This document shows positions 20,657 to 51,993 of a DNA stretch of 64,000 nucleotides, piece after piece. The stretch's first letter is position 1. The number at the start of each line of letters is the position of its first letter. The position numbers and the translations under genes were made by a program. The stretch is from Gammaproteobacteria bacterium (GTDB taxonomy: Bacteria; Pseudomonadota; Gammaproteobacteria; Ga0077536), in contig JACKNG010000003.1 in the NCBI GenBank assembly GCA_024235015.1, forward strand, positions 280,397 through 344,396. The letters are read 5' to 3'. The notes beneath the pieces are model-generated. The model saw only the letters and a program-made list of their open reading frames with translations, searched no databases and was not told the DNA's origin.

Positions 20657-20873
20657 AGCCTGATCTCCCCGGTAGTGAGCGGCGCGCGCGCCTGCACTGT
20701 CGCGGTGCAGTTGCGGCGGCGGCGCGCGGCCACCTCATGCTAGCAGTCCGCATCGCCACGCGCACTGAACCACCCTACGGCGGCGCACGTAGCAGTAACA
20801 GTGGCAAACTTCGGCGAGAAGACGGCTTGGCCACGTCGCCGTTGGCCCCGGCATCGCTGCAGGATGTACGCAC

Positions 20874-36642: not shown

Positions 36643-38271
36643 TCAGCTCTCGGCCGCGCGACCGCGCTGCGGAAACAGGCCGCGCGGGCGCTTCTGGATG
36701 AACACGATGATGAACACCAGGACCAGGATCTTGGCCATCACCGCGCCGGCCCAGGGTTCGAGGAACTTGTTGGCGACGCCGAGGCCGAGGCCCGCGACGA
36801 GCGTGCCCCACAGGTTCCCCACCCCGCCGAACACCACCACCATGAAGGAATCGACGATGTAGGCCTGGCCGAGGTTGGGCCCGACGTTGGTGAGCTGCGA
36901 CAGCGCCACCCCGGCCACCCCGGCGACCCCGGAACCGAGACCGAAGGTGAGCGCGTCGACGCGCGCCCCGCGCACGCCGATGGCGCGCGCCATGGCACGG
37001 TTCTGCGCCACCGCGCGCACTTCCAGGCCGAGCCGGGTGTAGCGCAGTACGGCCATCAGCGCGGCGAACACGATGAGGGCGAAGGCCATGATGTAGAGCC
37101 GGTTGTAGGTCAGCGAGAGCACGCTGTTGAGTTCGAGCGAGCCGCTCATCCAGGCCGGCGTCGCCACCGAACGGTTGAGCGGCGAGAAAATGGTACGTAC
37201 TGCCTGCTGCAGCACGAGGCTGACGCCGAAGGTCGCGAGCAGGGTCTCGAGCGGCCGCCCGTAGAGGAACCGGATGACGCCGCGCTCGATGGCGATACCG
37301 ACCAGGGCGGCGACCAGGAAGGCCGCCGGCACCGCAACCGCCAGTGACCAGCCGAGGTGGTTCGGCATGGCGAGCTGGACGACGTAGGTGGTGTAGGCGC
37401 CGAGCATGATGAGCTCGCCGTGGGCCATGTTGATCACGCCCATCACGCCGAAGGTGATGGCAAGCCCGATCGCGGCCAGCACCAGCACCGAGCCGAGGCT
37501 CAGGCCGAAGAACACCATCTGCAGGAATTCGTAGGTCGCGATGCGGTTCTCGATCGAGGCCAGGGCCGAACTCGCCGCCGCCTGCAAGGCCCGCGGCGCC
37601 TCCGGGTCCTCGGCGATCGCGGCCAGGCGGCCGCGTGCGACCGGGTCGAGCGAGCCGCGCAGCACGGCGATGGCGGCGGTCTGTGCGTCGTCGTCGCCCT
37701 GTTCGAGGTCGTAGAGGGCAATGGCGGTATCGAGCGCCGCGCGCACCCGCGCGTCCGGCTCCGACCCGCGCAGGCGGTCGAGCACGGCACGGCTGTCGCC
37801 ATCGAGGTGGCCGGCCATGGCCTCGACCGCGGCGCGCCGGGTGGCGGCGTCGGGGTTGTCCAGCGCGGCTTCGGCGATGAACCCGCGCAACTGGGTGCGC
37901 AGGGCGTTGTTGATGCTGAGGCGCGCGAGCTTGCGCTTGCCGACCGTGCCCAGCACCGCGCCGCTCAGTGCATCGGTGATGGCGTAGCCGCCGTCGGCAT
38001 CGTCGGCCAGCACGAAACGGTCGTCGGCCTTGGCGCGCATGAGGCGCCCATCGAGCAAGGCCTGCAACAGGCCGGCGGCGCGCGGATCGCGGGTGGCGGC
38101 AATGGCCTCGACGGCGCGCGCCTTGGCGTCGAAGCTGCGGGTGTCGAGCCCGGCGAGCGCGGCGGCGAGCGCATCGTCACCGGCGCGGACCGCCGGCGAC
38201 GCCACGAGCAGGGCGACGACGAGGACGACGAGGCCGGCCAGCGTGAAGTCCGCCGTGGCAGCGCCGTGCAT
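36643..38271 (-). CDS. urtB: urea ABC transporter permease UrtB with long N-terminal periplasmic extension
   Basis: C-terminal LivH-like permease core. An Ala/Asp-rich periplasmic extension of about 270 aa (possibly HEAT-like) sits N-terminal to it, as in long-form UrtB. Start ATG 38271; alternative at 38307. Confidence 0.75.
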   Translation of the reverse strand: MHGAATADFTLAGLVVLVVALLVASPAVRAGDDALAAALAGLDTRSFDAKARAVEAIAATRDPRAAGLLQALLDGRLMRAKADDRFVLADDADGGYAITDALSGAVLGTVGKRKLARLSINNALRTQLRGFIAEAALDNPDAATRRAAVEAMAGHLDGDSRAVLDRLRGSEPDARVRAALDTAIALYDLEQGDDDAQTAAIAVLRGSLDPVARGRLAAIAEDPEAPRALQAAASSALASIENRIATYEFLQMVFFGLSLGSVLVLAAIGLAITFGVMGVINMAHGELIMLGAYTTYVVQLAMPNHLGWSLAVAVPAAFLVAALVGIAIERGVIRFLYGRPLETLLATFGVSLVLQQAVRTIFSPLNRSVATPAWMSGSLELNSVLSLTYNRLYIMAFALIVFAALMAVLRYTRLGLEVRAVAQNRAMARAIGVRGARVDALTFGLGSGVAGVAGVALSQLTNVGPNLGQAYIVDSFMVVVFGGVGNLWGTLVAGLGLGVANKFLEPWAGAVMAKILVLVFIIVFIQKRPRGLFPQRGRAAES

Positions 38272-38502
38272 CGGCAGGGTGGAGCAGATGGCGTGGCGCG
38301 AACCCATGCCCGCGAAGGGAGCACACTCCGTGCCAAAGATGGTGCACATGCAGCTTTGCGCCTGGATTCGTCGATTGCTGATCTCGCGCCACGCGCGAGG
38401 TGGTGCGGCGGCGCGCCGAATTCGCGCAGGGCCGCCGGCTCGTGCACCGCGCGGGTGCGCCATCCCTGGCGCGTCGTGATTCCGTCCCCCCGGCGGCAGA
38501 CC

Positions 38503-38533
38503 GGGCCGCCCGCCATCCCTGGCCGGGCGGCCC
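38503..38533 (-). other. intercistronic GC-rich stem-loop downstream of urtA (no U-tract)
   Basis: GGGCCGCCCG (38503-38512) pairs with CGGGCGGCCC (38524-38533) around an 11-nt loop. Sits in the 290-nt urtA-urtB spacer. Confidence 0.4.
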
Positions 38534-38564
38534 GCTCGTCACCGCGCGGATGCGCCGTGCGGGA

Positions 38565-39854
38565 TCAGTAGTTCTGTCCCGAGCACTTGCCGGTCTTGAC
38601 GTTGTAGTTGCCGCAGGCCAGCGGCACGCGCCAGTCGGCGATGATGTCCTTCGAGCCCTCGAGGTAGTCCGACCAGGCGTCGCCGACCACGGTGCCGGCG
38701 GTCGACCACACGGTGACGAACTGGCCGTCGTCCTGGATCTCACCGATCAACACGGGCTTGGTGATGTGGTGGTTCGGCATCATGGTGGCGAGCCCCCCGG
38801 AGAGGTTGGGCACGGCGACGCCGATGATGGCGTCCTGGACCGCCTTCGCATCCGTGGTACCGGCCTTCTTCACCGCCTCGACCCACATGTTGAAGCCGAT
38901 GTAATGCGCTTCCATGGGATCGTTGGTCACGCGATCATCGTTCTTGATGAAGGCGTGCCAGGCGTCGATGAAGGCGTCGTTGGTCTCGTCCTCGACGCTC
39001 ATGAAGTAGTTCCATGCGGCGAGGTGGCCGATCAGCGGCTTGGTGTCGATGCCGGACAGCTCCTCCTCGCCGACCGAGAACGCCACCACCGGAATGTCCT
39101 CGGCCGACACGCCCTGGTTGCCGAGTTCCTTGTAGAAGGGCACGTTGGCGTCACCGTTGATGGTCGAGACCACCGCGGTCTTCTTGCCCGCCGAGCCGAA
39201 CTTCTTGATGTCGGCCACGATCGACTGCCAGTCGGAGTGCCCGAACGGCGTGTAGTTGATCATGATGTCGTCCGCCGCCACGCCCTTGGCCTTGAGATAG
39301 GCTTCCAGGATCTTGTTGGTGGTGCGCGGATAGACGTAGTCCGTGCCCGCCAGCACCCAGCGCTTCACGCCGAGTTCGTTCATCAGGTAGTCGACCGCGG
39401 GAATCGCCTGCTGGTTGGGCGCGGCACCGGTGTAGAAGACGTTCTTGGATGACTCCTCGCCCTCGTACTGCACCGGGTAGAAGAGCAGCGAGTCGAGTTC
39501 CTCGAACACCGGCAGGACCGATTTCCGCGACACCGAGGTCCAGCAGCCGAACACCGCCGCGACCTTGTCCTTGGCGATCAGCTCACGTGCCTTCTCGGCG
39601 AACAACGGCCAGTTCGAGGCCGGGTCGACGACCACCGCCTCGAGCTGCTTGCCGAGCAGGCCGCCTTTCTTGTTCTGCTCGTCGATGAGCATGAGCATGG
39701 TGTCCTTGAGCGTGGTCTCGCTGATCGCCATGGTGCCGGACAGCGAGTGCAGCACGCCGACCTTGATGGTGTCGTCGGCGGCCTGCGCCGGCGCCAGGCT
39801 GGTCAGCAGGGCGGCGCCCAGGGCGGCCGTGGTGATGCGCTTGAGTATCGTCAT
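38565..39854 (-). CDS. urtA: urea ABC transporter substrate-binding protein UrtA
   Basis: Signal peptide; UrtA/amide-binding family (CWTSVSRKSVLPV, YPVQYEGEESSKNVFYTGAAPNQQ). Confidence 0.85.
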   Translation of the reverse strand: MTILKRITTAALGAALLTSLAPAQAADDTIKVGVLHSLSGTMAISETTLKDTMLMLIDEQNKKGGLLGKQLEAVVVDPASNWPLFAEKARELIAKDKVAAVFGCWTSVSRKSVLPVFEELDSLLFYPVQYEGEESSKNVFYTGAAPNQQAIPAVDYLMNELGVKRWVLAGTDYVYPRTTNKILEAYLKAKGVAADDIMINYTPFGHSDWQSIVADIKKFGSAGKKTAVVSTINGDANVPFYKELGNQGVSAEDIPVVAFSVGEEELSGIDTKPLIGHLAAWNYFMSVEDETNDAFIDAWHAFIKNDDRVTNDPMEAHYIGFNMWVEAVKKAGTTDAKAVQDAIIGVAVPNLSGGLATMMPNHHITKPVLIGEIQDDGQFVTVWSTAGTVVGDAWSDYLEGSKDIIADWRVPLACGNYNVKTGKCSGQNY

Positions 39855-39908
39855 GGTGCATTTTTCTCCGTGATGATCTTCTTCGTGGTGGTTGCTGTGC
39901 CGCTGTCG

Positions 39909-41141
39909 TTACAGCTGCAGCTGGAAGGCGATGCGGAAGGCATCGATGCTGCGGCCGGCGGCGGTGGGCGAATAGTTGAGCCCCTTGGTGGCGATGTCGC
40001 CGTGCTGCCAGAAGGCCGAGACGCGGGCGTTGTGGCCGTCGATGATGTAGTTGACCCCGACTTCGACCTCGTCACGATCGGCGCTGCCGTTCGGCATCAC
40101 CTCGGTCCAGCGCACGTAGGGCTGCAACTTGCCGATACCGACCGTCTGCGGGAACAGCAACAGCGCCGCGACGGAGTAGGAATCGCCGTCGAAGGTGCAG
40201 AAGCAGTCCGGGTCGGCAAAGGCGGCCTTGGCGTAGTCGGCGTTGAAGTTCTTGTACTCGCCGTTGAGCGTCACGACGTGCTTGCTCTCGAGCACGCCCT
40301 CGTAGAGCAGGTCCGCGCTGAAGCCGAAGTAATCGCCCGGGTTGAGGAAGGAACCGGAACCGTCCTCCTGGTACTGGCCGACCAGGCCGATGGTGAAGAT
40401 GTCGCCGGCGGTGCCGTAGTAGGTGCCTGAGGTGTAGTAACCCGGGTTCTTCTCCACGCCGAGGAAGTTGTAGGCGATGCGCCCCGCCCACATCAGGTTG
40501 TCGTCCTGGTTGGGGCCGAAGCCGGCCGCCGATTCGAGACCGTTGAACACGCCGAAGACGTACTGCAGGCGCCCTTCCGGTGCGATCGCGCCCCACACGT
40601 TGACGCCGTGGTCGCGGGCGTAGACGCCGGCGCCGCCGGTGCCGAAGTCGACGCTGAAGTCGGACGGCGTGAAGGGCGTCTTGTAGGCGTCCCAGGTGGT
40701 CGAGTAGTAGGGACCGTTCAGCTCCTGGCGCTCGGCCGGCACCAGCAGGCGTCCGGCCCACACGTTGAACGCCGGGCTGAACTCGAACTTGGCGATGGCG
40801 TCGAGCACCACCCATTCCTCGTGCGCCGCGCCGGAGCCGCTGTTGCCGCAGAACACGCATTCGGTGTTGAGCTCGAACTTGATGTACTTGTGGATCTGGC
40901 CGTTGAGGTAGAGACGCGCGCTGTTGAGGTTGAAGTCGTCCGACCAGTCACCGTTGGGCGCCTGGTCCTCCGCGGTGCGGAAGTCGGCGCGCGCGCCCGC
41001 GCCCAGGCTCAGCCACTTGGTGTCGTCGATCTTGATCGTGGCCCCTGCCACCGCACCCTGCGCCACGCAGGCCAGCACCACTCCCGCCACCGGCGCCAGC
41101 CATGCGGCCATCCGCCCATTGCGATGCATCTTGGTCATCAC
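39909..41141 (-). CDS. outer-membrane porin, FmdC-like (short-chain amide/urea porin) candidate
   Basis: Signal peptide and beta-barrel composition (alternating aromatic/Gly-rich segments), ending in a C-terminal AFQLQL. Located immediately upstream of urtA, as fmdC is. Confidence 0.55.
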   Translation of the reverse strand: MMTKMHRNGRMAAWLAPVAGVVLACVAQGAVAGATIKIDDTKWLSLGAGARADFRTAEDQAPNGDWSDDFNLNSARLYLNGQIHKYIKFELNTECVFCGNSGSGAAHEEWVVLDAIAKFEFSPAFNVWAGRLLVPAERQELNGPYYSTTWDAYKTPFTPSDFSVDFGTGGAGVYARDHGVNVWGAIAPEGRLQYVFGVFNGLESAAGFGPNQDDNLMWAGRIAYNFLGVEKNPGYYTSGTYYGTAGDIFTIGLVGQYQEDGSGSFLNPGDYFGFSADLLYEGVLESKHVVTLNGEYKNFNADYAKAAFADPDCFCTFDGDSYSVAALLLFPQTVGIGKLQPYVRWTEVMPNGSADRDEVEVGVNYIIDGHNARVSAFWQHGDIATKGLNYSPTAAGRSIDAFRIAFQLQL

Positions 41142-41201
41142 CGTTGTTCTCCTTTGCTGGAAACTCGCCCGCGCCGCTTCGGCGGGGCACCGTGATGCGC
41201 T

Positions 41202-41219
41202 GCAGCAAGAAGCAGGCCA
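41202..41219 (-). promoter_or_regulatory. sigma-54 (-24/-12) promoter candidate for porin-urt-ure transcript
   Basis: Minus strand reads TGGCCTGcttcTTGCT, giving GG-N10-GC. About 60 nt upstream of the porin ATG at 41141. Shares the CCAAGGCG context with the promoters at 46520 and 48813. Confidence 0.5.
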
Positions 41220-41277
41220 AGGCGTTAACTACCTGTTATTCCTTCGGTTAATGGAATTCCCCGGCGATCGCATTCGG

Positions 41278-41291
41278 ATTTATGCACTAAA
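41278..41291 (-). promoter_or_regulatory. conserved upstream motif TTTATGCACTAAAC (putative enhancer-binding-protein site), copy A
   Basis: Lies about 75 nt upstream of the -24 element. Near-identical motifs are at 46596-46609 and 48889-48902, at matching positions relative to the other two sigma-54 promoters. Confidence 0.45.
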
Positions 41292-41430
41292 CGAAACGGC
41301 GCGCGCATGGCGCTGCACCGCGGCCGCCCGGCGCGCTGACGGCAGACATGAAAAGCGCCCCGGAGGGGCGCTGGCGCGGTCGGCGGCGACGGTCTCGCGG
41401 GCCACGGCGGTGGCCCGCGGGGGGCGCGGC

Positions 41431-42120
41431 TCACACGGCGAGGTAGCGGCTGACGTGGGCGGCGTCGACCTCGCCCCGGGCCCCCTCGTAGACGATCGCA
41501 CCGCGCTCGATGACGGCGATGCGGTCGGCCACGTCGAGGGCGAAGTGCAGGACCTGCTCGGAGACGATGATGGTGAGTTCGCGCATCTTGCGGATCTCCT
41601 TCAGGACCCGCGCGATGTCCTTGATGATCGAGGGCTGGATGCCCTCTGTCGGTTCGTCGAGCAACAACACGCGGGGTTCGGAGACCAGCGCGCGGGCGAT
41701 GGCGAGCTGCTGCTGCTGGCCGCCGGAGAGATTGCCGCCCTTGCGGTTGCGCATCTCGAACAGCACCGGGAACAGCCCGTAGATGTCGTCCGGGATCTTC
41801 TTCTCGCGCGCGGTCTCGAGGCCGGTCTCGATGTTCTCGCGCACCGTCAGCGAGGGAAAGATCATGCGTCCCTGCGGCACGTAGGCGATACCGTTCTCGA
41901 CCCGCCGGTGCGGCGCCATGGCGGTGACGTCGATGCTGTCGATGGCAACCTGCCCGCCGCGCGCGGGCAGGATGCCCATGAGTGCCTTGAACAGGGTCGT
42001 CTTGCCCATGCCGTTGCGACCGAGCACGGCCACGATCTCGTTGTGACCGACATCCATGTCGAGGCCGCGTATGACCTGGCTCTGGCCGTAGGCGACGTCG
42101 AGCTTGCGAACTGCGAGCAT
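41431..42120 (-). CDS. second UrtE-like ABC ATPase (amide/urea transporter, FmdF-like)
   Basis: Paralog of urtE (GRNGMGKTT, LSGGQQQQLAIARAL). Confidence 0.8.
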   Translation of the reverse strand: MLAVRKLDVAYGQSQVIRGLDMDVGHNEIVAVLGRNGMGKTTLFKALMGILPARGGQVAIDSIDVTAMAPHRRVENGIAYVPQGRMIFPSLTVRENIETGLETAREKKIPDDIYGLFPVLFEMRNRKGGNLSGGQQQQLAIARALVSEPRVLLLDEPTEGIQPSIIKDIARVLKEIRKMRELTIIVSEQVLHFALDVADRIAVIERGAIVYEGARGEVDAAHVSRYLAV

Positions 42121-42155
42121 ATCGTTACCTCTCGCGCTGGGTGGGATGGATGGGA

Positions 42156-42908
42156 TCAGTGGCCGAGGTAGACCTCGATCACCTTCTCGTTGCTCTTGAT
42201 CTCGGACATCGGCCCTTCCGCCAGCACCTGGCCCTGGTGCAGTACCGTCACGCGGTTGGCGATGCGCTCGACGAACTCCATGTCGTGCTCGATGACGATC
42301 ACCGCGCGGTCCCTGCAGATGCGCTTGAGCAACTCGGCGGTCTGCTCGCGTTCCTTGACGCTCATGCCGGCCACCGGCTCGTCGAGCATGAGCAGTTCGG
42401 GATCCTGGATCAGCAGCATGCCGATCTCGAGCCACTGCTTCTGGCCGTGGCTGAGCAGGCCGGCCTCGAGGTCGAGGCAATCGCCGAGGAAGATGCTCTC
42501 CGCGATCTCGCGGATACGCGCGTCGATTGTCTCGTCGACGTGGAAGAACAGGGCGCCGAACACGCCGCGCGCCGCGGGGTAGGACACCTCGAGGTTCTCG
42601 TACACGCTCAGGTTCTCGTAGATCGACGGGGTCTGGAACTTGCGCCCGATGCCCTCGCGCACGATGCGGTGCTCGGGCAGGCGGGTGATCTCGCGGTTCT
42701 TGAATCGAATCGAGCCGTCCGAGGCCGCGGTCTTGCCGCAGATGAGATCGAGCAGGGTGGTCTTGCCCGCGCCGTTCGGCCCGATCACCACGCGCAGCTC
42801 GTTGTAGTCGACGTAGGCGGTGACGTCGTTGACCGCCTTGAAGCCGTCGAAGGACACCGAGAGGTTCTCGATGGCGAGCAGGAAGTCGGTATTGCTGGAC
42901 GCAGTCAT
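42156..42908 (-). CDS. second UrtD-like ABC ATPase
   Basis: Paralog of urtD (GPNGAGKTT, LSHGQKQWLEIG). Confidence 0.8.
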   Translation of the reverse strand: MTASSNTDFLLAIENLSVSFDGFKAVNDVTAYVDYNELRVVIGPNGAGKTTLLDLICGKTAASDGSIRFKNREITRLPEHRIVREGIGRKFQTPSIYENLSVYENLEVSYPAARGVFGALFFHVDETIDARIREIAESIFLGDCLDLEAGLLSHGQKQWLEIGMLLIQDPELLMLDEPVAGMSVKEREQTAELLKRICRDRAVIVIEHDMEFVERIANRVTVLHQGQVLAEGPMSEIKSNEKVIEVYLGH

Positions 42909-42934
42909 GGCGGGTGCTCCTGGTACGTTCGCGG

Positions 42935-44134
42935 TCAGCGGTCGGTGCCGGTCGGTGCATGCGGCAGGGCGGCGTCGGCGCTCGCCGACGCCGCCGGCGG
43001 CGCGGGGTCGCGCGCCGCGAGCGCGCCCGTCCTCGTGACCGCGGCCAGCGGTGGACGGCCGAACACCCGGCGCAGGCGCTCGCTGCGGATGAGGCCGGCG
43101 AGGCCGTCGGGGAAGGCCATCACCACGCCGATGAACAGGGCGCCCATGAGGAACAGCCACAGCTCGGGGAAGGACTCCGAGAAGGCGGTCTTGCCGTAGT
43201 TCACCAGCAGGGTGCCGTAGACCGCCCCGATCAGGGACACGCGGCCGCCGACGGCGGCGAAGATGACCATCTCGATCGAGGGCACGATGCCGACGAAGGA
43301 CGGTGACATGAAGCCGACCTGCAGGGTGAACATTGCCCCGCCGATGGCCGAGAACAGGGCCGCGACGCAGAACACGAAGATCTTGAAGTTGGAGACGTCG
43401 TAGCCCGAGAAACGTACCCGGTCCTCCTTGTCCTTGAGCGCGAGCAGCAGCTTGCCGACCTTGCCCGAGAGGATGTAGCGCCCGGCCACGATGCAGGCCA
43501 GCAGCAGCGCCGCGTTGAGGAAGTAGAGCAGGTACTTGGCGCCGTCGCTGCGGATGTCCCAGCCGAGCAGGGTGCGCAGGTCGGTGATGCCGTTGACCCC
43601 GCCCGTCAGCCCCTGCTGGCCGATGATCAGGATGGTCAGGATGGCCGCCACCGACTGCGTGATGATGGCGAAGTAGACCCCGGTGACGCGGCGCTTGAAC
43701 ATCGCCACGCCGATGAGGAAGGCGAACAGGGTCGGTACCGCCAGGATCGCGAACAGGGTGAAGGCGAAGCTCTCGAACGGCACCCAGAACCACGGCAGCT
43801 CGGTGAGCTGGTTCCAATCCATGAAGTCAGGGATGCCGGGGGTCGACTGGATTGCCGTGGTCACCGGGTCCGAGGCTTCGAGCTTGAGGAACATGGCCAT
43901 GCAGTAGCCACCGAGGCCGAAGAAGATGCCCTGGCCGAGGCTGAGGATGCCGCCGTAGCCCCAGCACAGCACGAGGCCGACGGCGACGAAGGCATAGGTC
44001 AGGTACTTGCCGACCAGGTTGAGACGGAAAATGTCGAGGGTCAGCGGCATCACCACCAGGAGCACCGCGGCCAGCACGAGCAGGGCGGCGAGATCCGAAC
44101 GGCTACCGACGAGACGACGGGTCAGGGTAATCAT
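42935..44134 (-). CDS. second UrtC-like permease
   Basis: LivM-like permease, paralog of urtC. Confidence 0.75.
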   Translation of the reverse strand: MITLTRRLVGSRSDLAALLVLAAVLLVVMPLTLDIFRLNLVGKYLTYAFVAVGLVLCWGYGGILSLGQGIFFGLGGYCMAMFLKLEASDPVTTAIQSTPGIPDFMDWNQLTELPWFWVPFESFAFTLFAILAVPTLFAFLIGVAMFKRRVTGVYFAIITQSVAAILTILIIGQQGLTGGVNGITDLRTLLGWDIRSDGAKYLLYFLNAALLLACIVAGRYILSGKVGKLLLALKDKEDRVRFSGYDVSNFKIFVFCVAALFSAIGGAMFTLQVGFMSPSFVGIVPSIEMVIFAAVGGRVSLIGAVYGTLLVNYGKTAFSESFPELWLFLMGALFIGVVMAFPDGLAGLIRSERLRRVFGRPPLAAVTRTGALAARDPAPPAASASADAALPHAPTGTDR

Positions 44135-44183
44135 GGCGTGGATTCCTCCGCGGCGAAGACGTTGACGGCAGTGGTGGGTGCGC

Positions 44184-45110
44184 TCACTTGCGCACCCGGC
44201 TCGCGAAGAGTCCCTCGGGTCGCAGCATCAGGATGCCGATGACGATGGCGAGCGTGATCACCTTGGCCATCGAGCCGTTGATGAAGAACTCGAGGATCGA
44301 CTGCGCCTGGGCGATGGAGAAGGCCGAGGCAATGGTGCCGAACAGGCTGGCCGCGCCGCCGAACACCACCACGAGGAAGGTGTCGACGATGTAGAGCGAG
44401 CCGGACGTCGGCCCGGTCGAGGCAATCGTGGTGAAGACCGCACCGGCGACCCCGGCGATGCCGCAGCCGAGGGCGAAGGTGTTGCGGTCGACGCGCGCGG
44501 TGTTGATGCCGGCGGCCTCGGCCATGACGCGGTTCTGCGTCGTCGCGCGGACCTTCAGCCCCCAGCGCGAGCGGAACAGCAGGAAGAACACCGCCAGGGT
44601 CAGCACCGCGGTGACGCCGACCACCAGCAGGCCGTTGATCGGGATCTCGATGGTGTCGCTGAGCTGCCACGATCCGAGCAGCCACTCGGGCAGGGTCGGG
44701 CTGACCTCGCGCGCGCCGAACATCGAGCGGAAACCCTGCTGCATGATCAGCGACAGGCCCCAGGTCGCGAGCAGGGTGTCGAGCGGCCGCTTGTAGAGGA
44801 AACGGATGAGCGAGAACTCGACCAGCCAGCCGATCGCGAAGGCAACGACGAAACCGAGCGCGATGGCGAGGAAGAAGTAGTAGTCCATCAGCCAGGGCGC
44901 GTGCTTCTCCGCCACCACCGACATCAGGTAGGTGCTGTAGGCGCCGATGGTGAGAAACTCGCCATGCGCCATGTTGATGACCTGCATCTGGCCGAAGATG
45001 ATGGCCAGGCCCAGCGCCATCAGCAGGAAGACGCAGAACAGGCTCAGTCCCGCGAAACCCTGCATGGCGAAGATGGCGCCGATCTCGCTTGCCGTGTATC
45101 CCTCGAACAT
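44184..45110 (-). CDS. second UrtB-like permease (short form, no N-terminal extension)
   Basis: LivH-like permease core only; start ATG 45110 (MFEGYTASEI). Confidence 0.75.
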   Translation of the reverse strand: MFEGYTASEIGAIFAMQGFAGLSLFCVFLLMALGLAIIFGQMQVINMAHGEFLTIGAYSTYLMSVVAEKHAPWLMDYYFFLAIALGFVVAFAIGWLVEFSLIRFLYKRPLDTLLATWGLSLIMQQGFRSMFGAREVSPTLPEWLLGSWQLSDTIEIPINGLLVVGVTAVLTLAVFFLLFRSRWGLKVRATTQNRVMAEAAGINTARVDRNTFALGCGIAGVAGAVFTTIASTGPTSGSLYIVDTFLVVVFGGAASLFGTIASAFSIAQAQSILEFFINGSMAKVITLAIVIGILMLRPEGLFASRVRK

Positions 45111-45250
45111 GACGTCGAATCCTCGTGTCGAACCGCGAAGGGGCGCCGCCGGGGCGGCGCCGTGGATGTCGTTCTCGAATCGCGTCGGCGGATGCGCGCG
45201 GCGGCGGTGACCGGCTCGCAGCTTCCCGGTGCGCCGCCGCACGCCCGGCC

Positions 45251-46474
45251 TTACTGGTAGCCCTCAGGGAAGGGGTTGGGTTCGACCAGGTCGGACTCGT
45301 AGATCACGTCGAACTGGCCGTCCTTCTTGATCCGGCCGATGCGCGTCTTGCTCCACAGGTGATGGTTGGAGTCGTGGATGCGCACGTAGCCTTCCGGCGC
45401 GCCGGTGAACTCGATGCCGTTGGACGCGACCGCGATCTTGTCGATGTCGAAGCTGCCGGCCTTCTCGACGGCGAGCTTCCACAGCCAGGGTCCGAGGTAG
45501 GCGGCCTGGGTGACGTCACCGATGACGCTGTCGTCACCCCACATCTCCTTGAACGCGGCGACGAACTTCTTGTTGTTCTCGTTATCGAGACTCTGGAAGT
45601 ACTTCATCGCGGCATAGAAGCCCTCGGCGTTCTCGCCGCCGATGCCGAGCAGTTCGTCCTCGGTCACCGAGATGGTCAGCAGGGTCCACTTGTCGGAGGT
45701 GATGCCGGCGGCCTTGAGCTGCTTGTACCAGGAGACGTTGGAACCGCCGACGACGATGGAGTAGATCACGTCCGGCTTCTTCAGCTTGATCTTGTTGATC
45801 AGCGAGCCGAAGTTGGTGTGGCCGAGCGGGTAGTACTCTTCGCCCACGACCTTGCCACCGAGGACGTTCTCGATGTGCTTACGCGCGATCTTGTTCGAGG
45901 TGCGCGGCCAGATGTAATCCGAGCCGATCAGGTAGAAGGTCTTGGCGCCCTTCTCCTTCGCCACCCAGTCGAGGCCGGCGAGGATCTGCTGGGTCGCTTC
46001 CTGCCCCGTGTAGATGACGTTCTTCGACTGCTCGAGACCTTCGTAGAAGGTCGGGTAGTAGAGCATGCCGTTTTCCTTCTCGAACACCGGCAGCACGGCC
46101 TTGCGCGAGGCCGAGGTCCAGCAGCCCATCACCGCCGCGACCTTGTCGTTGACCAGCAGCTTCCTGGCCTTCTCGGCGAAGGTCGGCCAGTCGCTCGCGC
46201 CGTCTTCCTGGATGATCTCGATCTTGCGACCGAGCACGCCGCCCATGTCGTTGATCTGCTTGATGGCGAGCTTCTCCGCCTCGACCGATCCCGATTCCGA
46301 GATCGCCATCGTGCCGGTCACCGAATGCAGGATGCCCACGGTGACGGCGTCGTCGGTGACCGCAAGCCCGGTGGTGTTGACCTCGGCAGTGGGATAGTCG
46401 GCCGCCGTGGCGCCGCCGGCCAGGGCCAGCGCCGCCGCCAGTGCGAGCCAACGAAGGTGAATGTGTCTACGCAT
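45251..46474 (-). CDS. second UrtA/FmdD-like amide-urea substrate-binding protein
   Basis: Signal peptide; CWTSASRKAVLPV and YPTFYEGLEQSKNVIYTGQEATQQ, parallel to urtA. Confidence 0.8.
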   Translation of the reverse strand: MRRHIHLRWLALAAALALAGGATAADYPTAEVNTTGLAVTDDAVTVGILHSVTGTMAISESGSVEAEKLAIKQINDMGGVLGRKIEIIQEDGASDWPTFAEKARKLLVNDKVAAVMGCWTSASRKAVLPVFEKENGMLYYPTFYEGLEQSKNVIYTGQEATQQILAGLDWVAKEKGAKTFYLIGSDYIWPRTSNKIARKHIENVLGGKVVGEEYYPLGHTNFGSLINKIKLKKPDVIYSIVVGGSNVSWYKQLKAAGITSDKWTLLTISVTEDELLGIGGENAEGFYAAMKYFQSLDNENNKKFVAAFKEMWGDDSVIGDVTQAAYLGPWLWKLAVEKAGSFDIDKIAVASNGIEFTGAPEGYVRIHDSNHHLWSKTRIGRIKKDGQFDVIYESDLVEPNPFPEGYQ

Positions 46475-46519
46475 GTCTGCTCCTCAATCGGGTGTGGTTG
46501 AAAGGCCCGATTGCTGCAG

Positions 46520-46536
46520 TGCAGTAAACATGCCAA
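46520..46536 (-). promoter_or_regulatory. sigma-54 (-24/-12) promoter candidate for second urt-like operon
   Basis: Minus strand reads TTGGCATGtttaCTGCA (GG-N10-GC). About 46 nt upstream of the ATG at 46474. Confidence 0.5.
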
Positions 46537-46595
46537 GGCGTCAATCGCCTGTTTTTACGCAAGATTCCTCGCCAGTCGTGCAGGCGCGATGCCAT

Positions 46596-46609
46596 GTATG
46601 CACTAAACG
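46596..46609 (-). promoter_or_regulatory. conserved upstream motif GTATGCACTAAACG, copy B
   Basis: Same motif family as 41278 and 48889. A weaker variant, TGTTTTTACGCAAG, lies at 46551-46564. Confidence 0.4.
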
Positions 46610-46977
46610 CCGGGAACCGGATCGAGCGCTTGGTGCATACGCCGTTGCGCCGGGCCGGCGCATGCCTCGGCGCTTTCCAGCGGGCGCACCGCGACGCCGT
46701 CGGCCACGCGCGGCAGCAGCGCACGCAGGCCGTCGTTCTGCTCGAGGATCTTGCGCACCGTCGCGCAGTACCACGCGCCCTGGCGGGGCGCCGGGATGGC
46801 GCAGGCGGTGAGCGCATCGCAGATCTGCTGCAGGGTGAACTGGCGCGCCCGCAACATGAGGATGAAGTAGATGCAACGCCGTTGCTCGGGGTCGACGACG
46901 ATGTGTCCGGACGGCGTCAGGCGCCAGCCGTAACGCAGGCGCCGCGGGTTCTTGTGATCGGGGCGGTAGCTTCTCAT
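46603..46977 (-). CDS. recombinase-domain-only protein (large-serine-recombinase 'Recombinase' domain without catalytic resolvase domain); possible remnant or domesticated DNA-binding protein
   Basis: RYGWRLTPSGHIVVDPEQRRCIYFILMLRARQFTLQQICDALTACAIPAPRQGAWYCATVRKILEQ matches the recombinase-domain pattern PYGY..G.L..dp.E...I..IF......s...I...LN..GIP.P.G..W....V..IL.N. There is no room upstream for a resolvase domain because the fmdB stop is at 47051. Confidence 0.35.
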   Translation of the reverse strand: MRSYRPDHKNPRRLRYGWRLTPSGHIVVDPEQRRCIYFILMLRARQFTLQQICDALTACAIPAPRQGAWYCATVRKILEQNDGLRALLPRVADGVAVRPLESAEACAGPAQRRMHQALDPVPGV

Positions 46978-47050
46978 GGCCCTCGTAGACGGCTGTGTCC
47001 ATTCATGTGACGTGGAACCCTCCCCGCTCCACCCTGGCCGTCAGCGCGCG

Positions 47051-47374
47051 TCAGTGGCCGAGCATCCACGGCCGGCTGCCCGGGCGTCCGCCACCGAGCT
47101 TGTTCGCCGTGGCGGCGCCACCGCACGATTCGCCCGGCGCGTGGACGTGGCCGCAGCCGCCGCGGCTGGCGCGTCGTGGTTCGTGGGCGGCACGCTCGTT
47201 GCGCGCCCAGGCTTCGCGATTGCCCGGCGACATCAGGCCGAGACGCGGTGCGCCGACCTGGCGGGTCAGCCGCTGGTCGCATTCGGGACAGTGCACGGCG
47301 TCGTCGCGCGCCGCGATCGGGCGCAGCAGCGCGAAGCTGCCGTGGCTGCTGCAGTGGTAGTCGTAGACCGGCAT
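47051..47374 (-). CDS. fmdB: FmdB-family zinc-ribbon protein
   Basis: MPVYDYHCSSHGSFALL.....CPECD matches the CxxC...CPxCG FmdB putative regulatory protein signature. Immediately downstream of the formamidase gene. Confidence 0.6.
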   Translation of the reverse strand: MPVYDYHCSSHGSFALLRPIAARDDAVHCPECDQRLTRQVGAPRLGLMSPGNREAWARNERAAHEPRRASRGGCGHVHAPGESCGGAATANKLGGGRPGSRPWMLGH

Positions 47375-47519
47375 GGCGGGCTCCTCGATGGTGTCGCTGG
47401 CTAGCTGGTAACGGTTGACGGCGCCTGCCACGCGCCGTCACCCGCTCCGGTGTCGTCGCCCGTGGCCCGAAACGGCCGGCCCGCAGGCCGGCAAAGCAGA
47501 GGTCACGGGAAAAACTGCG

Positions 47520-48746
47520 TCACGAGGTCCTGGCCATGTCGACGCCGCCGAAGTCGACCGCCTTGGGTCCGTCGGCATTCAGCGAGATATCGAAGTCGAA
47601 GATGCCGGTCGGCAACCACAGGGTGGCGCAGGCATTGGGGATGTCGACGATGCCGCTGATGTGGCCTTCGACCGGCGCGGTGCCGAGAATGCCGTAGGCC
47701 TGTGCGCCCGAGTAGCCGAACTTCTTCAGGTACTCGATGGCATTGAGGCAGGCGCGGCGGTAGGCGACGTGGGCGTCGAGGTAGTACTGCTTGCCGTCCT
47801 CGTCGACCGAGATGCCCTCGAAGATCAGGTAATCGGAATACGACGGGTCGATGCGGCTGGGCTTGAAGATGGGATTGGTCACGCCGTACTTGGCCACGCC
47901 GCCCTTGATCAGGCTGACGCGGATGTCGAGGTAGCCGGCCATCTCGATCGCGCCGCAGAAGGTGATCTCGCCGTCGCCCTGGGAGAAGTGGATGTCGCCC
48001 ATCGACAGCCCGGCGCCCTTGACGTAGACGGGGAAGTACACCGTCGAGCCGCGCGAGAGGTTCTTGATGTCGCAGTTGCCGCCGTGCTCGCGCGGCGGCA
48101 CGGTGCGCGCGCCCTCGGCGGCGGCCTTGTCGCGCGCCGCGCCGGTGAGCCCGCCCATCACCGCGGTGGGCTCGAAGGGCAGCGTGGCGAGCGCCGGCAC
48201 GCGATCGGGATCGGTGTCGTAGAGCGCCTGCTCGCGGGTGTTCCAGGTCTTGAGCAGGTCCGCCGACGGCAGGCAGCCGATCAGGCCCGGGTGCATGGTG
48301 CCGGGGAACTTGACGTGCGGAATGTGGCGCGACGAGGCCCACACGCCGCTGTAGTCCCAGCACGCCTTGCGCGCCTCGGGATAGTGCTCGGTGAGGAAGC
48401 CGCCGCCGTTCTCGCGGGCGAACAGGCCGGTGAAGCCCCACGCCGATTCCGGCAGCACGCCGACGTCGAGGATGTCCACCACCAGCAGGTCACCGGGCTC
48501 GGCGCCCTCGACCCCGATCGGGCCGCTCAGGTAGTGCACCTTGGTCAGGTCGACGTCGCGGATGTCGTTGGCGCTGTCGTCGTTGTTGATCTGGCCGCCG
48601 GTCCAGTCGAGGCACTGGATGCGGAACTCGTCGCCCGGCTTGACCGTGCGTGCCATGGGAATGTCGGGGTGCCAGCGGTTGTGTATGACCTCGGCCTGCG
48701 CCTCGGCCGGCTTGTTCACGTCCACCTCGATCAGGGTCTGGATCAT
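47520..48746 (-). CDS. fmdA: formamidase / acetamidase-formamidase family amidohydrolase
   Basis: 408 aa, MIQTLIEVDVNKPAEAQAEVIHNRWHPDIPMA...; FmdA_AmdA family with fmdB downstream. GGAGG RBS. Confidence 0.85.
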   Translation of the reverse strand: MIQTLIEVDVNKPAEAQAEVIHNRWHPDIPMARTVKPGDEFRIQCLDWTGGQINNDDSANDIRDVDLTKVHYLSGPIGVEGAEPGDLLVVDILDVGVLPESAWGFTGLFARENGGGFLTEHYPEARKACWDYSGVWASSRHIPHVKFPGTMHPGLIGCLPSADLLKTWNTREQALYDTDPDRVPALATLPFEPTAVMGGLTGAARDKAAAEGARTVPPREHGGNCDIKNLSRGSTVYFPVYVKGAGLSMGDIHFSQGDGEITFCGAIEMAGYLDIRVSLIKGGVAKYGVTNPIFKPSRIDPSYSDYLIFEGISVDEDGKQYYLDAHVAYRRACLNAIEYLKKFGYSGAQAYGILGTAPVEGHISGIVDIPNACATLWLPTGIFDFDISLNADGPKAVDFGGVDMARTS

Positions 48747-48812
48747 CGATAGTCCTCCACTAACGGTCCGCAACGGTTGTGGCCGCAGGCCGCGGCCGTC
48801 GCCGTGCTGCAT

Positions 48813-48829
48813 TGCACACAACATGCCAA
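48813..48829 (-). promoter_or_regulatory. sigma-54 (-24/-12) promoter candidate for fmdA-fmdB
   Basis: Minus strand reads TTGGCATGttgtGTGCA (GG-N10-GC). About 68 nt upstream of the ATG at 48746. Confidence 0.5.
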
Positions 48830-48846
48830 GGCGGGTTCGTGAATCG

Positions 48847-48902
48847 AATCAAGTGCTTGCACCAAGTACCCGATTTCCGGTGCCTTGTTTTTGCACTAAG
48901 CC
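48847..48902 (-). promoter_or_regulatory. upstream activating region: IHF-like site AATCAAgtgcTTG, NtrC-like half-sites TGCACCA / GGTGCC, and motif TTTTTGCACTAAGC (copy C)
   Basis: The IHF consensus WATCAANNNNTTR is matched at 48847-48859. TGCACCA lies at 48858-48864 and GGTGCC at 48879-48884. The conserved motif lies at 48889-48902. Confidence 0.4.
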
Positions 48903-48993
48903 CAGGGAGGGAGGATGAAAACAGTGCGCGGCGCCGCTTGCGTGCCGGCATGCCCCGTCGCGGTGCGGGCGCTCTTGACGCCACCTCGGCACT

Positions 48994-49014
48994 GGAATTA
49001 AGGTCGGTAATTCC
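48994..49014. promoter_or_regulatory. palindrome GGAATTA-N7-TAATTCC in AT-rich promoter region upstream of DUF1302 operon
   Basis: Read from sequence. A related GGAATTCC palindrome lies at 41252-41259, upstream of the porin gene. Confidence 0.35.
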
Positions 49015-49118
49015 AATAGCGACATATAGTTATCGGCCATATCTAAGAGCCGACAACACTTTTACTTCGTAACTCGATATCGTCCGCGAGGGGGAACCGC
49101 GGCGAGGGGAGATCCACC

Positions 49119-50669
49119 ATGACACGCACCGCTGTGCGCGGCGCCCGCCTGCTGCTGACCCTGGTCCTCGGCGCGACCGCTATCGGCCCGGCCGCGGCCG
49201 AGGGCGTCGCCGCCGACCTGTTCTCCAAGTTCGATCGCGCCATGGCCGGCTTCGATCCCATCGGCAAGCACGTGCGCCGGCCAATCGAACGCGCCGTGCC
49301 CAACCTCACCTTCCGCGGCTTCTACCGCAACTGGTCGGACGTCATGCTCGACGACGACGGCATGGTCGGCTTCCGCAACAAGGACTTCCGCTTCGCCCAG
49401 CTGCAGAACCTGTTCGAACTCGAGACCAACTACCACGTCGCCGCCGGCCTCGACATCCGCGGCGTGGCGCACATGCTCTACGACGGCGTCTACGAGTGGC
49501 AGGACTCGCGCGGCCTGTTCGCCGATCGCATCGATCGCGAAGCGGAGCTCTACAACACCTCCGAGCGCGTGTTGCGCGAGCTCTACGTGAGCTGGCGCCG
49601 GCCGGGCTTCGACCTCCTGGTCGGCAAGCAGCAGGTCGCGTGGGGCAAGATGGACGGCCAGTTCATCGACATCGTCAACGCCATGGACCGGCGCGAGGCC
49701 TTCCAGCTCGAGACCGAGGACTACGAGTGGCGACGGCTGCCGACCTGGATGGCCAACGGCACCTTCCATCTCGGCGAGAGCACGGTCCAGCTGCTCTACA
49801 TCTTCGACTTCGAGCACGACCGCCAGCCGCTGCCGGGCTCGCCGTGGTACTCGCCGCTGATCCCGCCGACCACCAACGACGTCATCGTCGGCGTGCGCCG
49901 CCCCGAGGCCGGCGATTTTGACGACCACCAGTACGGCATCCGCGTCGATCGCTCGGCCGGCGCGCTGACCTACGGCTTCGTCTACATGTATGCCTGGGAC
50001 AAGAACCCGGTCGACCACGTCCTCGGCACCACCCTCAACAACGGCCAGACGGCGCTGCGCATCGAGCAGCGCCACGAGCGCGTCCACCACGCAGGGGTCA
50101 CCGCCGATTACGCCATGACCTTCCAGAACGTGCCGCTGGTCGGCTCGCTGCCGGCGGTGTTCCGCTTCGAGGCGCTGTATACCAACGGCGTGCGTTTCGC
50201 CGATTTCCGCAAGCGCGCCCAGGCCCTGGCCGGGCGCAACACCGACGGCACCACCAAGCGCGACACGCTGCGCGCGGCGATCGCCGCCGAGTTCGCCCTG
50301 CCCGGGCGCACCACCGTGATCTTCCAGCCCTCGTGGTACCAGACCATCGACCACCGCGAGGAACTCGGCTTCGGTTTCGGCGGCGGCTTCGGCGACGAGT
50401 GGAGCCTGATCCCGGTGGTGTTCTTCTCGCGGCCCTTCGCCTTCACCCGCGATCGCCTGAGCATGGAGTTCACCGCCTTCCCGCTGATCAGCGGCCCGGA
50501 CACCGGTTGGGGCGGGCTCAAGACCAAGCTGCGCCTGATCTACAAGTTCTCGCAGTTCGTCAAAGGCCAGCTGGTCTACAACGGCTACGACACCGGTTCC
50601 TCGACCGACGTCTACGGTCAGTACAATCAGTGGGACAACATCGGCTGGGAGCTGAGCTATGAATTCTGA
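49119..50669 (+). CDS. DUF1302-family outer-membrane beta-barrel protein
   Basis: Signal peptide and C-terminal aromatic residue (..WELSYEF). DUF1302-like sequence features; followed by its usual DUF1329 partner. Confidence 0.7.
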   Translation: MTRTAVRGARLLLTLVLGATAIGPAAAEGVAADLFSKFDRAMAGFDPIGKHVRRPIERAVPNLTFRGFYRNWSDVMLDDDGMVGFRNKDFRFAQLQNLFELETNYHVAAGLDIRGVAHMLYDGVYEWQDSRGLFADRIDREAELYNTSERVLRELYVSWRRPGFDLLVGKQQVAWGKMDGQFIDIVNAMDRREAFQLETEDYEWRRLPTWMANGTFHLGESTVQLLYIFDFEHDRQPLPGSPWYSPLIPPTTNDVIVGVRRPEAGDFDDHQYGIRVDRSAGALTYGFVYMYAWDKNPVDHVLGTTLNNGQTALRIEQRHERVHHAGVTADYAMTFQNVPLVGSLPAVFRFEALYTNGVRFADFRKRAQALAGRNTDGTTKRDTLRAAIAAEFALPGRTTVIFQPSWYQTIDHREELGFGFGGGFGDEWSLIPVVFFSRPFAFTRDRLSMEFTAFPLISGPDTGWGGLKTKLRLIYKFSQFVKGQLVYNGYDTGSSTDVYGQYNQWDNIGWELSYEF

Positions 50670-51993
50670 GACGCCCGTCGCCAGCACCGCCGGCCGCCTG
50701 CTCGCCGCGGCCGCACTCGTCGCCGTCACCAGCCTCGCCGCCGCCGCCGAGCGCAGCTGGCGCGGCGTCGACGAGATGGCACCCGAGGACCGCGCCCTGT
50801 TCGACCCGGCGATTTCGACCCCGCGCGACGCCAGCCTCGACTACGTGCCCGCCGAACCCTACCCGTTCGAAGCGCCCTACACCGCCGAGGAGATGGGTTA
50901 CCGCTCGGCCGAGTTCGTGCACATCTCGCGCTGGGACTACGCCCTGGTCGACGTCTTCGGCGTCGTCACCAGTTCCGGCTACATCAACCAGGGCGCCTCG
51001 GTGGGTTACGTCGAGACCGGCGGCCGACCCGGCTTCGAGGGCTACATGCTCGACAAGAAGGCCGGCGAGATCTATTCGAAGTGGTTGCTCTACGACGTCT
51101 TCCCGCCGGAGAACGAGGGCGCGCAACAGCTCTGGCTGCCCTACCGCACGGACAAGAGCTTCCGCACCAAGATGGACTTCTTCGTCTACTCGCCGCAGCT
51201 CAGGCGCGTGCGGCGCCAGCCCGAACCACGCCGCGACCAGCGCTTCCCCGACAACTCGCAGACCTTCGACGACGTCATCGGCCGCGACCCGTGGGAGTTC
51301 GAATGGCAGCTACTCGGCACCGACGTCCTCTACGAGACCCTGCGCTTCCCGACCAGCCGCCCGAGCGTGACCCTCAACGTGCCCGGCCAGGGTTTCGTCG
51401 AGCGCCAGGGCGCGAGCATCAAGCCCATGGGCGAGAACTTCCCCCACTACCGCGCCGACGGCGGCGTCGACTGCTGGGTGGTGAAGGCGACGGCGAAGAG
51501 CGACTGGCTGCCGGGCTACAACGAGAAGTACCTGGTGCTGTGGCTGGAGAAGCACACCTTCTACCCGCTGCGCACGGAGAAATACGGCACCGACGGCCGG
51601 CTCATCATGATCGAGGAACGCAATGCCGAGCTGCAGAACCCGGCGCGCGGCGAGTTCGGCTACGCCGCCATGATGACCACCTACTGGAACGTCGATCACG
51701 ACCTCATCGGTTACAGCAACCACGACGCGCACACGCTCCGCGACTGGACGCCGGAGGAGATCGACATGATCTTCACGCCGGAATTCATGCGCCGGCAGTG
51801 GCTGGTCGAACCGCTCAAGTCGCAGGTGTTGATCGACGCCCCGGAGGACTTCTTCCTGCGCCCGCATCTCTACCCGGACAAGTTCCCGGGTGAGCGCAAC
51901 CCGGTGCTGCCAGCGGCCGTGCAGGCACGTTACGACGCCCAGGAAGCGGCCGGGCAGCTGGTGTTCGAGTCGCCGGGCGCGGCCGCCGAATGA
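50659..51993 (+). CDS. DUF1329-family (LolA-like fold) periplasmic/outer-membrane-associated protein
   Basis: Signal peptide; 11-nt overlap with the DUF1302 gene; DUF1329-like sequence. Confidence 0.65.
   Translation: MNSETPVASTAGRLLAAAALVAVTSLAAAAERSWRGVDEMAPEDRALFDPAISTPRDASLDYVPAEPYPFEAPYTAEEMGYRSAEFVHISRWDYALVDVFGVVTSSGYINQGASVGYVETGGRPGFEGYMLDKKAGEIYSKWLLYDVFPPENEGAQQLWLPYRTDKSFRTKMDFFVYSPQLRRVRRQPEPRRDQRFPDNSQTFDDVIGRDPWEFEWQLLGTDVLYETLRFPTSRPSVTLNVPGQGFVERQGASIKPMGENFPHYRADGGVDCWVVKATAKSDWLPGYNEKYLVLWLEKHTFYPLRTEKYGTDGRLIMIEERNAELQNPARGEFGYAAMMTTYWNVDHDLIGYSNHDAHTLRDWTPEEIDMIFTPEFMRRQWLVEPLKSQVLIDAPEDFFLRPHLYPDKFPGERNPVLPAAVQARYDAQEAAGQLVFESPGAAAE

Follow-up and report, generated by a model that had tools for sequence, protein, structure and literature searches.

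Predicted sigma-54 promoters with a shared NtrC-like half-site in an amide and urea scavenging gene cluster of an uncultured gammaproteobacterium

The 64-kb stretch of DNA considered here (contig JACKNG010000003.1 of assembly GCA_024235015.1, positions 280,397 to 344,396; hereafter the window) comes from a gammaproteobacterial genome of about 70% GC and carries a nitrogen-scavenging gene cluster that lies entirely on the minus strand. The cluster comprises the formamidase gene fmdA, fmdB for a zinc-ribbon protein, orf124 for a small stand-alone recombinase-domain protein, the operon urtA2BCDE for a urea or short-chain-amide transporter, a gene for an FmdC/ExtI-like porin and urtA1, downstream of which follow urtB1CDE and the urease genes. 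The porin gene and urtA1 (38565-41141, minus strand) are separated by just 54 nt and for this reason probably belong to a single transcript. Predicted sigma-54-type promoters precede fmdA, urtA2 and the porin gene (P_fmdA, P_urtA2 and P_porin), and they share an upstream motif; this motif and the regulator that may recognise it are the subject of our analysis. The coordinates of the features are collected in Table 1.

At these three promoters, and at a fourth one in front of urtB1 (P_urtB1), GG and GC doublets stand exactly 10 nt apart in a context resembling TGGCAC-N5-TTGCW (TGGCCTGCTTCTTGCT at P_porin, TGGCATGTTTACTGCA at P_urtA2, TGGCATGTTGTGTGCA at P_fmdA and TGGCACGGAGTGTGCT at P_urtB1). 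The distance from the end of the element to the start codon is 61 nt for the porin gene (41141), 46 nt for urtA2 (46474) and 67 nt for fmdA (48746), which confirms the 45-70 nt given for three minus-strand GG-N10-GC elements in an earlier note on this DNA; the element before urtB1 was absent from that list. The sequence CGCCTTGGCMTG occurs in the window exactly three times, always at the porin, urtA2 and fmdA promoters, and with one mismatch allowed it gives 7 matches against 1.4 expected. A scan of positions 38000-49300 for sigma-70-like promoters found none. The -24/-12 elements are kept at the orthologous genes in L001-L009, L082, L091, L099 and L112 (the loci compared are numbered with an L), and together with the upstream motif they are retained at orthologous fmdA and urtA2 genes, and at the porin gene in loci that have one, across relatives of 32-70% GC. 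This conservation and the lack of sigma-70-like promoters in the region support the proposal of the earlier note that the three elements are sigma-54-type promoters of one regulon under a single enhancer-binding protein (EBP).

The motif itself is strongly over-represented and positionally fixed. The 8-mer TTAGTGCA is present in four copies in the 64 kb against 0.33 expected, three of them at the porin, urtA2 and fmdA promoters, where TTGGC follows downstream at a distance of exactly 70 nt; given the base composition, the chance of meeting this 8-mer at the same offset in two further promoters is about 1e-11. The fourth copy (1732-1739) was dismissed as a chance occurrence, since it lies inside a coding region and has no -24/-12 element 70 nt downstream. 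At the promoters the motif extends to a 13-mer, TTTAGTGCATAAA, which is exact at P_porin and deviates by one mismatch at P_urtA2 (TTTAGTGCATACA) and by two at P_fmdA (CTTAGTGCAAAAA). The identical offset of the three copies bears out the repeated motif that had been described before fmdA, the second urtA and the porin gene. The CCTGTT(A/T)TT tract that had been placed between motif and promoter in all three copies stands for P_porin and P_urtA2 (copies A and B), where its placement is comparable, and falls for P_fmdA (copy C), in which a similar sequence, CCTTGTTTTT, directly adjoins the motif.

Conservation of the 13-mer was assessed with 31 orthologous promoters from related gammaproteobacterial metagenome-assembled genomes (MAGs) of 32-70% GC. 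Each of its positions is conserved in 26 to 32 of 32 cases, and the orientation is always identical. It starts 71-74 nt before TGGC in 23 cases, 80-84 nt before it in 8 and 68 nt before it in one, the two main spacing classes being one helical turn apart. The eight positions upstream of the 13-mer are unconserved and show no trace of a canonical NtrC left half. When the high-GC orthologues are aligned, conservation is seen in the 13-mer, in the -24/-12 element and, for P_urtA2, in the sequence TATGCACCA, which matches the NtrC left half in 7 of 7 positions and is invariant in six orthologous P_urtA2 promoters; the remainder between the blocks has diverged. A second upstream site is a clear feature of P_urtA2 and of the AT-rich relatives, in which it takes the form of a direct repeat 20-30 bp upstream and sometimes of a reverse copy 44 bp upstream, and it is weak for P_fmdA and P_porin.

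P_fmdA carries two additional features that the earlier note had listed for copy C, and both were found. Between the upstream site and the -24 element lies an IHF consensus, AATCAAGTGCTTG, the sole exact match to WATCAANNNNTTR in the window; no match to WATCAANNNNTTR within one mismatch exists in P_urtA2, P_porin or P_urtB1, which have AT-rich tracts there instead. The two TGCACC-type half-sites are GGCACC and GGTGCA, and this pair (48858-48884) is not kept in L001 or L002.

A sigma-54 promoter requires an EBP. A six-frame search for the signatures of EBPs (GAFTGA, EBP-type Walker A), RpoN and NtrC found none in the window or in L001-L015, the closest of the 80 loci obtained by a scan for FmdA relatives with one genome per species; of these, L001-L009 are gammaproteobacterial MAGs with 82-91% FmdA identity and share the gene order fmdA-fmdB-orf124-urtA2BCDE. 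Since no EBP gene is present in the window or the 15 closest loci, a global regulator encoded elsewhere fits better than a dedicated neighbour. The 13-mer points to NtrC in particular. The NtrC box of E. coli is TGCACCAnnnTGGTGCA, with TnnTGC and GCAnnA as the most conserved bases by genomic SELEX, that is, systematic evolution of ligands by exponential enrichment (PMC8743547), and the 13-mer holds both TnnTGC (T3-A-G-T6-G7-C8) and GCAnnA (G7-C8-A9-T-A-A12).

Further evidence comes from a scan of metagenome contigs in which the exact 13-mer had to be followed, 53-70 nt on, by TGGC-N8-TGCW. About 24 of the 39 matches lie ahead of nitrogen genes. Six belong to fmd/urt clusters, all with orf124, and others precede type I glutamine synthetase genes glnA (L089, L115, L110, L094), a small GSII-like gene (L085, L088, L093, L106, L113), a cyanase gene (L086) or a Gcw_chp porin gene (L103, L108). 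Ahead of the glutamine synthetase genes, the 13-mer makes up the right arm of complete NtrC palindromes (TGCACCGTTTTAGTGCA, CGCACTAATTTAGTGCA, TGCACTAATTTAGTGCA). In these contigs the synthetase gene is followed by ntrB and ntrC, and this type of site stands before glnA-ntrBC in these organisms, which are not that of the window (L089, L115, L110, L094, L085, L088). The NtrC proteins encoded there have the recognition helix GWGRNTLTRKLK and align to 1NTC, the solved NtrC DNA-binding domain. The glnA promoter of L094 had been considered as a pair of direct half-site repeats; this was rejected because both repeats have recognisable left halves (CGCATCA and TGCTCTT), so that the promoter gives no example of NtrC using bare half-sites. 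The two closest relatives of the L094 GlnA have ordinary NtrC palindromes. In fmdA/urtA loci of other lineages, which lack orf124, the sigma-54 promoters are also accompanied by TGCACC/GGTGCA sites, at other positions.

The targets are of the expected kind. NtrC and sigma-54 control urt/ure genes and the use of urea and acetamide in Burkholderia cenocepacia (PMC5491218), urt/ure genes are predicted NtrC targets in several taxa (PMC5343134), and a gammaproteobacterial methanotroph shows conservation of the NtrC motif (PMC12799797). Taken together, these data make phosphorylated NtrC the likely regulator, and the promoters would then be nitrogen-limitation NtrC/sigma-54 promoters of a normal nitrogen-starvation regulon with an unusual site layout. 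Of the two options left by the earlier note, an NtrC-like protein or a dedicated amide/urea regulator, the former gains from the occurrence of the 13-mer in glnA palindromes and the latter loses for want of a neighbouring EBP gene. The further suggestion that the regulator may be uncharacterised, made on the ground that the operator is not the NtrC palindrome, is not supported: the 13-mer holds the conserved half-site bases and serves as palindrome arm at glnA, and P_urtA2 has the half-site TATGCACCA in addition.

The fourth promoter, P_urtB1, sits between urtA1 and urtB1, with counterparts at about 20160-20310 in L001 and about 10690-10830 in L082. Given this location, the urt1 operon would have an internal nitrogen-regulated promoter after the binding-protein gene. 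Upstream of it lies a near-canonical NtrC palindrome, CGCACCCGCGCGGTGCA, which in L082 reads TGCACAAATTGAGTGCG.

A number of observations nevertheless weigh against NtrC as the reader of the 13-mer. The full 17-bp palindrome TGCACCAnnnTGGTGCA is found at none of the three promoters; porin, urtA2 and fmdA have the right half (TAGTGCA) only and lack the canonical left half. Although it falls outside the 17-bp box, the TAAA flank is conserved to the same degree as the GTGC core, which the NtrC consensus does not predict. A protein that recognises a specific sequence as a monomer would likewise fit the fixed orientation and the sharp 13-bp boundaries. The matches at glnA were selected by a search for the exact 13-mer, and they speak for compatibility with NtrC and not for a need of the flank; among them may be canonical sites whose fit to the 13-mer is accidental. 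For this genome, glnA, ntrC and rpoN were not seen; GlnA is too conserved, and a protein search with it gave no match tied to the genome.

These points leave some room for a factor encoded in the cluster itself, orf124 or FmdB, to which the 13-mer would offer a composite or separate site and which would act together with NtrC or position it, adding amide- or urea-specific induction on top of nitrogen control. The orf124 product has a conserved core of 85 residues and no catalytic domain. Its assignment comes from Pfam, in which the Recombinase family is matched by 15 of 15 homologues, and from fold comparison, in which the best PDB matches, with weak E-values, are the recombinase domains of large serine recombinases (Bxb1, LI and PhiC31); a profile sequence search against PDB returned nothing significant. 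Homologues are encoded in L001-L009, L082, L091, L099, L104, L107 and L112, always between fmdB and urtA2, and the product in the window is identical to the NCBI protein H6977_08865 and is also found in GCA_020444845.1. In large serine recombinases, the group to which these fold matches belong, the recombinase domain binds as a monomer to asymmetric sites roughly as long as the 13-mer, and the 13-mer is asymmetric, sharply bounded and fixed in orientation. A motif placed 72 or 82 nt before TGGC is confined to loci with orf124 (nine genome loci, six metagenome loci and the window); in loci without it, 43 sigma-54 promoters of fmdA/urtA all lack this layout. In addition, orf124 would be transcribed from P_fmdA and hence made under the same conditions.

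However, the co-occurrence of orf124 and the layout is confounded by phylogeny, as all the loci fall in one FmdA clade. A sigma-54 promoter would still need an EBP, and nothing but the TGCAC-containing blocks is conserved upstream; the 13-mer is, moreover, an arm of the NtrC palindrome at glnA, and there is no experimental precedent for regulation of transcription by FmdB or by any stand-alone recombinase domain. We consider a role of a cluster-encoded factor unlikely on this balance, and it is doubtful that the 13-mer TTTAGTGCATAAA is a composite element bound by NtrC and orf124 together, going beyond a weak NtrC site. Were that so, the DNA-binding domain of a serine recombinase would have been recruited as a transcription co-factor that adds amide/urea specificity to sigma-54 promoters. 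The 3' end of orf124 overlaps the upstream sites of P_urtA2 in the high-GC members, in which the C-terminal tail is variable. Only the residues MHQ of this tail are conserved. Their coding sequence, ATGCACCAA, doubles as the distal NtrC half-site in P_urtA2, and TAG, the stop codon, falls inside TTTAGTGCA and inside the 13-mer; the constraint on the tail therefore acts at the level of the DNA and not of the protein.

Another EBP encoded elsewhere, an NtrC paralogue or a dedicated amide/urea activator, might recognise the 13-mer, with the likeness to the NtrC half-site being coincidental. The missing canonical left half and the conserved TAAA flank speak for it, and the earlier note had reasoned in this way too. 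Dedicated EBPs, however, usually adjoin their targets, and no such gene lies by the cluster in the window or in L001-L015; the core of the 13-mer matches NtrC exactly, the neighbouring P_urtB1 is served by canonical NtrC palindromes, and the 13-mer itself is present at glnA-ntrBC promoters. We regard this explanation as improbable. That the three promoters are recent duplicates of one module, with the motif shared by common descent and not by selection for binding, is largely refuted by the pattern of conservation and very improbable indeed, for although CGCCTTGGCMTG and the TGCAGC after the -12 are shared only within this genome and its high-GC relatives, the 58 nt between motif and -24 and the flanks cannot be aligned between the three copies, and the 13-mer and its spacing persist at 32-70% GC while the surroundings diverged.

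With NtrC as the preferred regulator, activation might proceed as follows. Sigma-54 RNA polymerase would form a closed complex on the -24/-12 elements before fmdA-fmdB-orf124, urtA2BCDE, porin-urtA1 and urtB1. Phosphorylated NtrC, encoded elsewhere in the genome, would bind at two places: the TAGTGCA core within the 13-mer, with its centre near -92 relative to the predicted start of transcription, and a TGCAC-type site that lies another two to three helical turns upstream. It would then oligomerise, loop over the AT-rich or IHF-bent spacer, reach the polymerase and open the promoter. As each site has one good half-site, more phosphorylated NtrC would be needed than at glnA, and the scavenging operons may be switched on later in starvation. 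We infer the binding, the looping and the activation threshold, the last from enterobacterial precedent; what was observed directly is the set of sequence elements, how they are conserved, oriented and phased, and that they are identical with NtrC sites at glnA.

In the enterobacterial NtrC promoters the enhancer sites lie at about -90 to -140 on one helical face, the strength of the sites sets the threshold for phosphorylated NtrC, and some of the promoters, such as glnHp2, have an IHF site between enhancer and promoter. Like the promoters described here, glnAp2, glnHp2, glnK and nac combine a -24/-12 promoter with TGCAC/GTGCA enhancer sites (for the NtrC consensus see PMC8743547 and PMC4987338). 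In contrast to them, the proximal sites in the window and its relatives keep one half of the 17-bp palindrome and a conserved TAAA flank, occupy a fixed position (72 or 82 nt before TGGC) in a fixed orientation, and have as their second site an inverted half-site at a distance of 32 bp, in place of which the AT-rich relatives show a direct repeat at 20-30 bp. The same targets (urtABCDE, ure, porins, acetamide and urea utilisation) are NtrC- and sigma-54-dependent in B. cenocepacia H111 and in the predicted NtrC regulons of proteobacteria (PMC5491218; PMC5343134); here the lineage is a different, uncultured gammaproteobacterial one, and a formamidase and an FmdC-like porin are included. The fmdCABDEF cluster of Methylophilus methylotrophus has the same content, namely formamidase, FmdB zinc-ribbon protein, porin FmdC and a Urt-like transporter, and differs in gene order and in the lack of orf124 and of a second urt-ure operon; it is repressed by ammonia (PMC10781810). 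The system is thus probably of the known NtrC/sigma-54 nitrogen-scavenging type, and it is the half-site layout that is unusual.

What emerges is a coherent picture of the operons and promoters that serve amide and urea scavenging in an uncultured gammaproteobacterial lineage from wastewater or the environment, and in it the expected global regulator would suffice to explain the three promoters. These promoters and their orthologues form a natural series of probable NtrC-type promoters that rely on one half-site whose distance and helical phase are fixed; the series could be used for testing how site strength and phasing relate to activation thresholds. They also draw attention to orf124 as a small conserved protein with a recombinase domain.

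Table 1. Promoter elements, upstream sites and genes of the scavenging cluster (positions in the window)
Feature	Position	Strand	Remarks
P_fmdA -24/-12 element, TGGCATGTTGTGTGCA	48813-48828	-	also in L001, L002, L082, L099, L104
P_urtA2 -24/-12 element, TGGCATGTTTACTGCA	46520-46535	-	conserved in orthologous promoters
P_porin -24/-12 element, TGGCCTGCTTCTTGCT	41204-41219	-	also in L001, L082
P_urtB1 -24/-12 element, TGGCACGGAGTGTGCT	38320-38335	-	also in L001, L082
Proximal upstream site of P_fmdA, CTTAGTGCAAAAA	48888-48900	-	2 mismatches; starts 72 nt before TGGC
Proximal upstream site of P_urtA2, TTTAGTGCATACA	46595-46607	-	1 mismatch; includes orf124 stop codon TAG
Proximal upstream site of P_porin, TTTAGTGCATAAA	41279-41291	-	exact 13-mer
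Distal site of P_urtA2, TATGCACCA	46631-46639	-	canonical NtrC left half-site; inverted, 32 bp upstream of proximal TAGTGCA
IHF consensus of P_fmdA, AATCAAGTGCTTG	48847-48859	+	between upstream site and -24
Extra NtrC-type half-sites of P_fmdA	GGCACC 48879-48884; GGTGCA 48858-48863	-	layout GCACC-N15-GGTGC
Near-canonical NtrC palindrome, CGCACCCGCGCGGTGCA	38443-38459	-	one mismatch; about 110 nt upstream of P_urtB1
fmdA, formamidase	47520-48746	-	Pfam FmdA_AmdA, E 7e-186
fmdB, FmdB-family zinc-ribbon protein	47051-47374	-	Pfam Zn_ribbon_8 and TIGR02605
orf124, stand-alone recombinase-domain protein	46603-46977	-	PF07508 match in 15/15 homologues
urtA2BCDE, urea/short-chain-amide ATP-binding cassette (ABC) transporter operon	41431-46474	-	UrtA = TIGR03407; gene order
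Terminator-like hairpin 3' of urtE2	41354-41372	-	
FmdC/ExtI-like porin	39909-41141	-	NF040900 porin_ExtI, E 1e-25, under family cutoff
urtA1	38565-39854	-	UrtA matches TIGR03407

Some relatives carry further copies of these elements. In L003 (about 7962-7974) and L009 (about 9884-9896), both AT-rich, an extra exact 13-mer adjoins the -24 element of fmdA and starts 16 nt before TGGC. Low-affinity 'governor' sites at glnAp2 limit expression at high activator levels, and by analogy the extra 13-mer could act in the same way. Relatives of the L002 type (L002 at about 8350-8510; also L099 and L104) have a sigma-54-like element, TGGCATCGGAATTGCT, before a gene for a secreted alpha/beta-hydrolase-like protein of 350 residues just upstream of fmdA, and GACAGTGCATAAA starts 139 nt before its TGGC. 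Good -24/-12 elements also precede fmdA/urtA in loci labelled as Verrucomicrobiota or Planctomycetota (L019, L038, L040, L041, L056, L062, L065, L067 and others), without TGCAC-type sites at the equivalent positions. From these elements, sigma-54 control of the cluster seems to be widespread beyond Proteobacteria.

A scan of the window for NtrC palindromes with up to 3 mismatches gave 69 matches against 88 expected, which is no enrichment, and only matches with 0-1 mismatch are informative in it. A perfect palindrome, TGCACTGTCGCGGTGCA, lies at 20693-20709, 37 nt upstream of a gene for a molybdopterin oxidoreductase of 709 residues (18527-20656, minus strand) and about 165 nt upstream of a diguanylate-cyclase-like gene (20874, plus strand). 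No proper -24/-12 element adjoins it, so the palindrome might serve for repression or might have arisen by chance.

The leaders of the cluster hold no known riboswitch or small RNA, as an Rfam scan of 37500-49500 (E<=1) returned zero matches. The genes divergent from fmdA, which had been taken for a possible two-component system, turned out to be a DUF1302/DUF1329 pair of outer-membrane proteins (49119-51993, plus strand). UrtB1 (36643-38306, minus strand) has an N-terminal extension of about 230 residues ahead of the permease domain, which is kept in L001 and absent from UrtB2.

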